The notes under the pieces: model-generated
The model's input: the letters and a program-made list of their open reading frames with translations, nothing else
Told to the model about the DNA's origin: nothing
The model's database searches: none
Shown here: piece by piece, positions 33,020 through 35,844 of the stretch
How the letters are laid out: each line of letters begins with the position of its first letter
Position numbering within the stretch: the first letter of the stretch is position 1
Made by a program: the position numbers and the translations under genes
Virus record (IMG/VR): IMGVR_UViG_2706794676_000012
DNA length: 39,720 nt
Strand: one strand, 5' to 3'
Origin: a virus
Taxonomy: Duplodnaviria; Heunggongvirae; Uroviricota; Caudoviricetes

Positions 33020-33550
33020 TTATTTATTCAGTCCGGCGTCCTGTTCAAAAGGCTCGACATAAAAACTTTCAGCGCCTTTATTCACCTTGATACCGGCAAT
33101 GCCTTTCACAGCATCCGGCTCCGCCAGGACGGCTTCCTTGTTCACTTCCTCTTTCGTGCGGATGAAACGCTCAAGCCCCATACGGCGCAGCATTTCAATC
33201 ACACCTTCCACATCACGGCTGACGCTGCATGATGGCGTTCCCAGCCGCCATGACACCGTTCCGGTGGTCAGATTGGCTGTTTTGGTTTTGCCGCCGTTCG
33301 TCAGCTCATCACGGTTGGTTTTGCACCAGTCCTGAATCCCTTTAAAAAGCACTTTGATTTGCTTTTTAAGATTTTCAATCTGCGGCGTATAACGGGCGGT
33401 GATTTCTGCCACTTCGTCATTCATCGCCGTTTCCAGGCGCAGCGCCTCTCGCTGAATATCTCCCAGGGTGCGGATATCACGGCTGACTTCTTCCCGGGTC
33501 TGCGGTGCCGCCTCGGCTGCGGCCTTTAATTTTGTAACGCGTTTAGCCAT
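33020..33550 (-). CDS. gam: Gam host-nuclease inhibitor (DNA end-binding protein)
   Basis: 176 aa with ...DIQREALRLETAMNDEVAEITARY...DWCKTNRDELTNGGKTKTANLTTGTVSWRL...FIRTKEEVNKEAVLAEP..., which I recognise as Mu Gam from memory. Confidence 0.9.
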   Translation of the reverse strand: MAKRVTKLKAAAEAAPQTREEVSRDIRTLGDIQREALRLETAMNDEVAEITARYTPQIENLKKQIKVLFKGIQDWCKTNRDELTNGGKTKTANLTTGTVSWRLGTPSCSVSRDVEGVIEMLRRMGLERFIRTKEEVNKEAVLAEPDAVKGIAGIKVNKGAESFYVEPFEQDAGLNK

Positions 33551-33561
33551 TTTGTTTTTCC

Positions 33562-33855
33562 TTATTGCAGTGTGCCTGATGCTTTATGCACGCGGTGGCG
33601 TTTAATGATGGCATCCGCTCCAAAAGACTGTGCAGATGCCTGAAATTCCGCTGAGAGAAACTGAATAATTGCAGGACTGTGATACTGGAGAATACTTGCA
33701 TAAACGTCACAGAGTGACGTCGGCCTGTTATCCGTATCACGTTCTGTTTTCACATCCACTCCAATCTTTTCATGCACTTCAACACAGTCATTGCCTGCCA
33801 ACTTTTCGTCATGCGAAACATGATTAAATTCAAAAATAACGCGTACTTTGCTCAT
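33562..33855 (-). CDS. Hypothetical protein (97 aa), tandem paralog of 33860..34132
   Basis: Starts MSKVRVIFEF...; ATG 33855 with SD AGGGG. The longer ORF-track start at 33882 overlaps the neighbour. Confidence 0.55.
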   Translation of the reverse strand: MSKVRVIFEFNHVSHDEKLAGNDCVEVHEKIGVDVKTERDTDNRPTSLCDVYASILQYHSPAIIQFLSAEFQASAQSFGADAIIKRHRVHKASGTLQ

Positions 33856-33859
33856 GGAA

Positions 33860-34132
33860 TTACCCCTGTTGATTAAATTCATTACCGTTAATAACCCCGG
33901 AAGCCATGCCTCTGTCTTTCATGAATGCACTGGCTTTCATTGCCACAAACTCTGCGAAGTTTCTGCTTTCTGCCAGCATAACCACCCCAAAAATCATGGC
34001 GGGTCCATTATCTTTCTTCTTTATTCCGGTTGAACGTATATCCAGACTTACCCCTCTGTGCGTGCTGCCATCAGAGTTTTTGCAGATAACATCTTCCTTG
34101 TATTCGAAAATAATGCGTACGACTTTACTCAT
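33860..34132 (-). CDS. Hypothetical protein (90 aa), tandem paralog
   Basis: Starts MSKVVRIIFEYKEDV...; shares N-terminal and internal motifs with the downstream paralog. Confidence 0.55.
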   Translation of the reverse strand: MSKVVRIIFEYKEDVICKNSDGSTHRGVSLDIRSTGIKKKDNGPAMIFGVVMLAESRNFAEFVAMKASAFMKDRGMASGVINGNEFNQQG

Positions 34133-34411: not shown

Positions 34412-34666
34412 TCACACCTCCCAGTAAACCGTGCAGCCGCTGATGCGGGTGGCCTTCACACGGCGGCGCAGGCCGTTGGTCTGTATGGTGATTTCAATTT
34501 CACCGGTTCCCTGCACGTTGCCTACCGGCGGCGTGGTTTTCAGTGCAAAACGTTGCGGATAGCGCTTACTGCGTTCCAGTACCGCACCGGCAAGTTCGGT
34601 CAGACGGCGCGCGCTGTTCAGGGAGTCGAATAAATTCATTTTGTTACCGCAGGATTGCATATTCAT
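34412..34666 (-). CDS. Hypothetical early protein (~84 aa; start uncertain)
   Basis: Best start ATG 34666 preceded by GAGGTG. Confidence 0.45.
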   Translation of the reverse strand: MNMQSCGNKMNLFDSLNSARRLTELAGAVLERSKRYPQRFALKTTPPVGNVQGTGEIEITIQTNGLRRRVKATRISGCTVYWEV

Positions 34667-34678
34667 ATAACACCTCAT

Positions 34679-34906
34679 TTAGCTGACTTGTTTCGCACCA
34701 ACAGAACGGCATATTCCGCTGTAAACTTCTGTCGCACCTTCGCGATCAAGTCCGGCAGATATCACCATTCGTGTGCGGTCATTAAATTCAAAAAGTAAAT
34801 CGCCACATTCTTTATTTTCGGCCAGTGAAATCACCTTCACGTTATCGAAATTAACCAGGTAAAAGCGTCCGTAAATATCAGGAATATTAAATACCGCCAT
34901 AATCAC
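34679..34906 (-). CDS. Kil-like small protein (by position and size)
   Basis: 75 aa immediately downstream of B, as for Mu kil (74 aa); assignment is positional only. Confidence 0.4.
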   Translation of the reverse strand: MIMAVFNIPDIYGRFYLVNFDNVKVISLAENKECGDLLFEFNDRTRMVISAGLDREGATEVYSGICRSVGAKQVS

Positions 34907-35844
34907 ACCTGTGAGAGTAATTCAGGGTTGGTATAAACCTCTTTAAAGGCCGCATTAATATGTTTTTCTGTCAGCGCCGCGCCTTCACCGCTGGCGGTGA
35001 GCCACGCCTGGTTAAGCGTATGTGTCAGAACGCGTAACGCTCCCGGCTTTTCAGCGATAGCCTGCATGACGGCCAGCTCGGCCTCACCACTGATCCCCCA
35101 CGCCATGGCAATGGCCAGCACATCCGCCTTTTTGGCCTTGCGAAGTTGTTTTGTACGGGCAAGACGGCTGAACAGGCGCGATAAATCATCAAAGGCGCGG
35201 CGTCCACCTTTAAACAATCCGCGCGGGTTACCAATAAGCACCATCCCGATCCCCGTGGCGTCCTGAATTGCCCGGAGTTGCTCCAGACCGTCAATACCAA
35301 GATGATCCGCCTCATCCACAATCACCAGTCCACGCGTTCCCATCAGGCGACGGCGGATGGCGCGGGATAATGCCCCTTTGTTCGCGCGGGTGTAATCAAT
35401 CCCCAGCGCATCGGCCAGCTCCAGCAGACACTCCGTGACGCTGGAGTGCGCGGGTGACAGGGTGATCATCCAGGTGTTTGGTTGCTCCTGGCAGTAATTA
35501 CGGGCAGTGGCCGTTTTACCCACACCCGGTACGCCCACAATAACGTTAATACAGCCCATCAGGCGAACCGCCTGAAACAGTGCGCGCAGCTCCTGGACTG
35601 TCTGAGTTTCCACAAACTGCGGCGGTTCCGGCAGTGCGCTTTGTTTATTCCAGTTCTCATACCAGGAGCGCAGGGAAGCAGCCACAGCAGCGTTATCGCC
35701 TTTATATTTTCCCTTACGGAAAGCCGATAATGTGCCGTCGGAAATTCCCGCCTCTCTGGCGATGGCATACTGCGTCAGTACGCCGCCATCAATAAGTTCA
35801 TCAATGGTCTTGATTACATCGTTAATATCGGTCATATTATTCAC
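34903..35844 (-). CDS. B: Transposition ATPase B (MuB-like AAA+ target DNA activator)
   Basis: 313 aa; Walker A GVPGVGKT; N-terminal helix-turn-helix; directly downstream of the transposase. Confidence 0.9.
   Translation of the reverse strand: MNNMTDINDVIKTIDELIDGGVLTQYAIAREAGISDGTLSAFRKGKYKGDNAAVAASLRSWYENWNKQSALPEPPQFVETQTVQELRALFQAVRLMGCINVIVGVPGVGKTATARNYCQEQPNTWMITLSPAHSSVTECLLELADALGIDYTRANKGALSRAIRRRLMGTRGLVIVDEADHLGIDGLEQLRAIQDATGIGMVLIGNPRGLFKGGRRAFDDLSRLFSRLARTKQLRKAKKADVLAIAMAWGISGEAELAVMQAIAEKPGALRVLTHTLNQAWLTASGEGAALTEKHINAAFKEVYTNPELLSQV

Follow-up and report, generated by a model that had tools for sequence, protein, structure and literature searches.

Why does a Mu-like prophage carry, side by side in its early operon, two small genes that begin almost identically and have little else in common, and what might their products do? 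The pair, here called A and B, lies on the minus strand, as does the whole early operon, of a 39,720-nt stretch of viral DNA (IMG/VR record IMGVR_UViG_2706794676_000012; the window below). An initial annotation saw in it rapidly diverged tandem paralogs of a kind expected at counter-defense loci, pointing to the neighboring gam gene. The reading that we prefer, with a probability of about one half and by analogy with the Mu protein Gnarl2, is that the two genes encode Gnarl2-type accessory proteins that diverged long ago and act on the synthesis of envelope polysaccharides in the host.

Gene calls and the early operon

Both open reading frames are present and adjacent as initially described, at 33562-34132 and 90 and 97 aa long. 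The features of the locus, in gene order, are the following:

35918-38005, minus strand: MuA transposase
34903-35844, minus strand: MuB ATPase
34679-34906, minus strand: 75-aa gene
34412-34678, minus strand: Kil-like gene, 88 aa
34129-34410, minus strand: 93-aa gene, upstream neighbor of A, phrog_1518
33860-34132, minus strand: gene A, 90 aa, starting MSKVVRIIFEY
34103-34132, minus strand: ten-codon start of A (MSKVVRIIFE), with the N-terminal strand motif seen across the family
33856-33866, minus strand: A-B junction, with the TAA stop of A (33860-33862) preceded by GGGG on direct reading of the sequence
33562-33855, minus strand: gene B, 97 aa, starting MSKVRVIFEF
33826-33855, minus strand: first 10 codons of B (MSKVRVIFEF), an 89% DNA match to their counterpart in A
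33020-33550, minus strand: gam, encoding a Mu-type Gam (PF07352, E 5.5e-42; phrog_491)

With MuA, MuB and the Kil-like gene upstream, in the order MuA, MuB, 75 aa, Kil-like, 93 aa, A, B, Gam, A and B are genes of the early (Pe) operon of a Mu-like transposable prophage of E. coli. The TGA stop of the 93-aa gene overlaps the ATG of A as ATGA, the GGGG within the last codons of A forms the Shine-Dalgarno sequence of B, and only 4 nt separate the stop of A from the ATG of B, a spacing from which translational coupling of A and B is probable. Gam, whose position just downstream had been correctly noted, begins 11 nt after the B stop; Mu-type Gam is a Ku-like protein that protects DNA ends. The AT-richness attributed to the pair is mild but real, at about 42% GC across A and B versus 50-55% in the flanks.

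An alternative start of B at 33882 is possible and would give a reading of 106 aa; we chose the 97-aa start because homologs are called at 97 aa and because a GGGG ribosome-binding site precedes the ATG at 33855. Inside B, a second frame (33543-33740, minus strand) stays open beyond the gam start, and several database proteins of 103 aa (P0052, P0061 and P0063) are versions of B frameshifted into this frame, which may be sequencing errors or pseudogenes. For the 93-aa gene, whose group phrog_1518 bears the PHROGs label 'host nuclease inhibitor', there was no match in Pfam, NCBIfam or PADLOC. Promoter-like and terminator-like sites between 32800 and 36000 were no commoner than in shuffled sequence, and an Rfam search of the window found nothing.

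Similarity of A, B and Mu E6

Aligned directly, A and B are 22% identical across 76 aa (BLASTP, E 6e-4), and their score is significant against 5000 shuffles (p = 0.0002, z = 6.1). This pairwise similarity is significant only because of the N-terminal strand, in which 8 of 9 residues are shared: without the first 11-12 residues the shuffle test becomes marginal (p = 0.04, z = 2.2), and with the strand removed neither A against B nor A against E6 alone reaches significance. At the DNA level the two genes are 89% identical in the first 10 codons and 27-48% identical elsewhere, which bears out the earlier description of a common start on otherwise diverged proteins. Comparison of the A and B family profiles (hhalign) gave a probability of 82-85% with an E-value of about 1e-5, over the N-terminal 45 columns.

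A wider family connects them. We gathered 178 Mu-like loci with Gam, A, and B as queries and searched all of their ORFs by iterative HMM starting from B. The first recruit was an 89-aa 'MAKVIFEFN' family (phrog_2230; E 3e-4, nearly full length), followed by variants from Kluyvera and other enterobacteria (E 6e-9), then by Mu E6/gp7 (E 3e-6, full length), and last by A (E 8.8e-4, 74 of 89 columns); the search converged with zero unrelated ORFs recruited. Mu E6 also matches phrog_2230 directly (E 0.009), and since neither A nor B yields a BLASTP alignment with Mu E6, it is profiles alone that connect them. In hhalign comparisons, B matches the enlarged family with 98.8% probability (E 1.2e-16; still 97.8% when its N-terminal strand is left out), and Mu E6 matches the family built without it with 97.3% (E 1.9e-11; 67-83% with the strand removed). 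A is the weakest link and leans heavily on the N-terminal strand: it matches with 95.4% (E 1.8e-8, 73-77 columns) whether or not B is included, and with 78% (E 1.9e-5, 59 columns) once that strand is removed. Besides the strand, the landmarks of the family are a Gly-Pro that precedes the helix and a Gly that follows it, and A and B carry both glycine sites. In the existing classification A is phrog_4107 (E 1.7e-54) and B is phrog_2230 (E 1.8e-38), PHROGs splits the family into three groups (these two and phrog_10252), and no Pfam model covers it.

Homology to the Mu E6/Gnarl2 family thus emerges for both proteins from hhalign and from the iterative search, and both genes have the setting typical of the family, among the early genes of a Mu-type transposable phage from B/kil to gam. 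B very probably belongs to this family, and A probably does so too, as a divergent member. Judged by their profiles, A and B are true paralogs, as initially proposed, but very distant ones whose divergence is ancient.

Extending the search with HMMER and the family profile to 1.84 billion representative proteins gave 39 matches at E <= 1e-3, one of which is an artefact: the top match (P0145, 710 aa) contains 13 short repeats resembling profile columns 35-55 and was rejected as low-complexity. The matches that were looked up belong to Salmonella, Citrobacter, Enterobacter, Kluyvera, Serratia, and Edwardsiella; with the E. coli members added, they all fall within Enterobacterales, and every named one is 'hypothetical'. 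Word-based searches with A or B returned only E. coli 'hypothetical proteins', and in tblastn of both against 50,697 phage records the only hits were two Stx-phage records that contain a Mu-like phage insertion. This is a small family of proteins of about 85-100 aa, found only in Mu-like phages of Enterobacterales.

Structure prediction suggests the same layout for both proteins, a long beta-hairpin followed by a long helix. The AF2 model of A (pLDDT 81) has strands at residues 6-18 and 24-35 and a helix at 44-73; that of B (pLDDT 78) has strands at 4-20 and 24-39, making a hairpin at 4-39, and then helices at 48-92. Both were built from one mixed family alignment, and their common fold is supportive rather than independent evidence; as modeled, A and B have the size (about 80-100 aa) and the N-terminal strand, hairpin, and long helix of the family. 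A hydrophobic-moment check supported strand 2 in all four proteins considered (A, B, phrog_2230, and Mu E6) and the helix clearly only in phrog_2230 and Mu E6, the signal being weak in A and B. No significant structural neighbors of the two models were found, comparison with PDB sequence profiles, PADLOC, NCBIfam, and Pfam matched no known inhibitor or defense protein, and homology to a housekeeping phage protein was found for neither. The two differ in charge: A is basic (pI 9.25, charge +2.6), whereas B (pI 6.3, charge -2) is mildly acidic, most other family members also being acidic, and this contrast could favor a heterodimer. A terminal histidine (..KH, ..RH, or ..CH) is seen in most of the family, Mu E6/Gnarl2 included, whereas A has QQG at its end (33860-33865) and B has TLQ (33562-33567).

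Distribution, selection and allele reshuffling

The pair is found in 232 of 5426 complete E. coli genomes, intact (coverage >= 80%) in 226 of them, and in the IMG/VR contigs of its lineage except for an A-less variant and contigs cut at their ends. Copy number varies by lineage: Mu proper and the Salmonella, Serratia, and Kluyvera lineages have a single family member, lying 754, 328, or 17 nt from gam or without a Mu-type Gam beside it, the last being the case for the Salmonella members. Adjacency to gam is therefore specific to the A+B lineage and not conserved across the family, which itself is absent from many Gam-bearing Mu-like phages (22 loci rows, about 20 distinct loci). In sister phages, E6-type and phrog_2230-type genes share one slot behind the same upstream flank.

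Selection on the pair is purifying on balance and looser than on the neighboring genes: dN/dS (Nei-Gojobori) is 0.29 for A and 0.35 for B, compared with 0.22 for the 75-aa gene, 0.18 for gam, 0.13 for the 93-aa gene, 0.09 for the kil-like gene, and 0.07 for MuB. Replacements in A are concentrated in the hairpin tip (codons 16-30) and behind the helix, in the C-terminal tail (codons 71-85), while its helix core has dN/dS of 0.05-0.2; only the windows at codons 21-30 and 76-85 reach a dN/dS of 1 or more, and all of these windows contain few changes. The first ten codons of B are nearly invariant even at synonymous sites (pS 0.016 versus 0.2-0.4 elsewhere), and this frozen segment spans B alleles that are otherwise just 57% identical. 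It could reflect either a constraint at the DNA or RNA level or a recurrent recombination boundary.

The alleles of the two genes assort independently. Contigs L034-L042 with L050-L075 pair a B of 56-59% identity with an A of 79-96%, and the reverse holds in GCA_902846645.1 (L186, 4001-4571), where A is 57% and B 93% identical. In the A-less lineage (L040, 3796-4188; and L110, IMGVR_UViG_2654587996_000001), a B-type gene lies directly behind the 93-aa gene, and the junction falls exactly at the 5' segment that A and B have in common, which suggests that copies are lost or gained by recombination between the starts of the two genes. A 67-aa E. coli database protein (P0030) consists of residues 1-49 of A and the last 18 of B, joined at a shared 'FG', and reads as a deletion chimera of the two.

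These observations change the history first proposed for the pair. B is closer to the single-copy Salmonella and Serratia proteins and to phrog_2230 than to A, and the split between A and B is as deep as the family itself, any two of its branches being equally far apart. Given this deep split, the closer single-copy relatives of B, the purifying selection, and the independent reassortment, recombination that stacked two old alleles is no less likely an origin than duplication in place. We rejected a recent tandem duplication under diversifying selection, since the copies are not closest to one another within the family and have gene-wide dN/dS values of 0.29 and 0.35. What had been called rapid divergence is old, and what had been called duplication and divergence looks more like a pair of independent cassettes.

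Candidate functions and known systems

One member of the family, its founder, has been studied experimentally. Mup07 (Mu E6/gp7; NP_050611.1, NC_000929 4784-5047) is orf63, named gnarl2 (Silas et al., Nat Commun 2025, PMC12373910; bioRxiv 10.1101/2023.04.06.535777), and the published sequence is identical to that of the Mu E6 used here. It emerged from a counter-defense screen, and on its own it shortens O-antigen, seen as downshifted bands on LPS gels, in the wild E. coli strains ECOR1 and ECOR22 and raises T5 infection of wild E. coli 10^5-10^6-fold (PMC12373910). No clear partner emerged from affinity purification with mass spectrometry (AP-MS); the authors propose that small proteins of this kind interfere with O-antigen enzymes of the host, with superinfection exclusion or the prevention of re-adsorption to debris as possible roles (PMC12373910). 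The A, B, and phrog_2230 types are absent from the gene list of that screen (PMC12373910).

Carried over to the present pair, this would give the following picture. A and B would be made together with the transposase, Kil, and Gam on infection or induction, as their operon position suggests. Each would be a non-enzymatic protein of about 90 aa with a predicted long beta-hairpin packed on a long helix, and, if like Gnarl2, would bind and disturb a host factor for making or attaching O-antigen or LPS, so that a disturbed O-antigen or LPS assembly during lytic growth or induction would change the cell surface. The phage might benefit through the exclusion of superinfecting phages and through less wasteful adsorption of progeny to cell debris, and two unlike copies with independent allele exchange would probably extend the coverage to more host variants or targets. 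A and B are probably modifiers of the host surface rather than nuclease inhibitors. Function may not carry over from Gnarl2, however, because sequence identity is at most about 20%, and an effect on the O-antigen in particular is a tentative assignment, to which we would give somewhat less than even odds.

Two of the alternatives concern whether A and B are what they appear to be. It is very improbable that they are chance ORFs or decaying, functionless remnants: their annotation is just 'hypothetical protein', and frameshifted and fused variants exist in databases, but the 226 genomes with intact copies, dN/dS values well below 1, and tightly coupled gene junctions all speak for genuine, maintained genes, and on these grounds we rejected spurious ORFs; the AF2 models are also confident. 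A subtler possibility is that A is not a whole-gene paralog of B and shares with it only a 5' module of about 30 nt spread by recombination, the bodies having separate origins. The concentration of nucleotide identity in the first 10 codons, the loss of A-B significance without the strand, the almost frozen 5' segment of B, and the junction at that same segment in L040 would all fit such a history. It is nevertheless unlikely in our view: A without its strand still matches the enlarged family profile (59 columns, 78%, E 1.9e-5), A and B are of one length class with the same predicted order of hairpin and helix, and the glycine landmarks on either side of the helix are conserved in both.

The other two alternatives accept the genes and differ on the function. 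A and B might be intracellular counter-defense inhibitors (anti-RecBCD, anti-restriction, or similar) working alongside Gam, which their early position directly upstream of gam, their small, variable, non-enzymatic character, and the 'host nuclease inhibitor' label of the upstream 93-aa neighbor would all suit. The adjacency is not conserved, however (754 nt in Mu, 328 nt in others, no Mu-type Gam beside the Salmonella members), and led us to reject A and B as a functional unit with Gam; they have no likeness to a known inhibitor in Pfam, NCBIfam, PADLOC, or PDB, and the one tested relative acts on O-antigen (PMC12373910). We thus regard direct inhibition of this kind as having a small chance of being right. 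The initial proposal of a counter-defense locus survives in part: the stretch is variable and accessory and Gnarl2 came from a counter-defense screen, but the link to gam and the inhibition of RecBCD or restriction are unsupported. Alternatively, the pair might serve phage biology or another form of host takeover (transposition or replication, cell division, the nucleoid), leaving the envelope unaffected. The semi-essential early region of Mu carries a mixed set of genes, kil, gam, and gemA among them, which makes such a role conceivable, as does the AP-MS result without a clear Gnarl2 partner (PMC12373910). The family is narrow, variable, and missing from many Gam-bearing Mu-like phages, which argues against a core phage role, and its sole recorded phenotype is O-antigen alteration (PMC12373910), so that we hold this reading, too, to be improbable.

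Through this analysis, three PHROGs of 'unknown function' (phrog_4107, phrog_2230, and phrog_10252) and two hypothetical genes become tied to one family with a single experimentally characterized member, Gnarl2. About 4% of complete E. coli genomes, including many from Shiga-toxin-producing strains, carry the pair, and an anonymous gene pair turns into a testable question: is the O-antigen of pathogenic E. coli altered on prophage induction? A true O-antigen effect would matter for serotyping, for host range in phage therapy, and for how prophages reshape the cell surface, and the natural series of very different alleles could help to find the target of Gnarl2. More speculatively, and with a low probability, the basic A and the acidic B might form a matched pair, either a heterodimer or two effectors on different steps or variants of O-antigen synthesis, whose swapping alleles might track host O-antigen diversity (O157, O111, O26, O103, and others). 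If so, the locus would record a phage-host arms race over surface polysaccharide synthesis, in which Mu-like prophages, once induced, would alter the antigen that defines the serotype of Shiga-toxin-producing E. coli.

Among known systems, Mu Gam (PF07352) and other phage nuclease or restriction inhibitors share with A and B an operon and early timing, but no similarity in sequence or fold. Gnarl1 and Gnarl3, which are small, stand-alone, non-enzymatic accessory proteins that change LPS, with Gnarl3 binding GalU (PMC12373910), offer a possible functional analogy; the likeness is one of phenotype alone, and their described sources are different phages (a Klebsiella phage and Escherichia phage Mangalitsa). 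B belongs to phrog_2230, the PHROG of the 89-aa 'MAKVIFEFN' proteins from Mu-like prophages of E. coli and Salmonella, strongly by hhalign even without the N-terminal strand, and such genes replace E6 in sister phages. The hairpin of B exceeds theirs by 8 residues, its C-terminal tail is different, and those genes are single rather than paired. Mu E6/Gnarl2 itself differs from A and B in sequence (identity of about 15-20% to either, not significant pairwise), in arrangement (one copy 754 nt from gam with two genes between, where here two copies abut gam), and in its terminal histidine in place of the QQG of A and the TLQ of B, and the O-antigen phenotype is known for Mup07 alone. What it has in common with them is its size class (87 aa, against 90 for A and 97 for B), an N-terminal M-x-K-V-x-I-x-E strand, the order of strand, strand, and helix, and a genomic place between B/kil and gam, within a Mu-type transposable phage's early operon.
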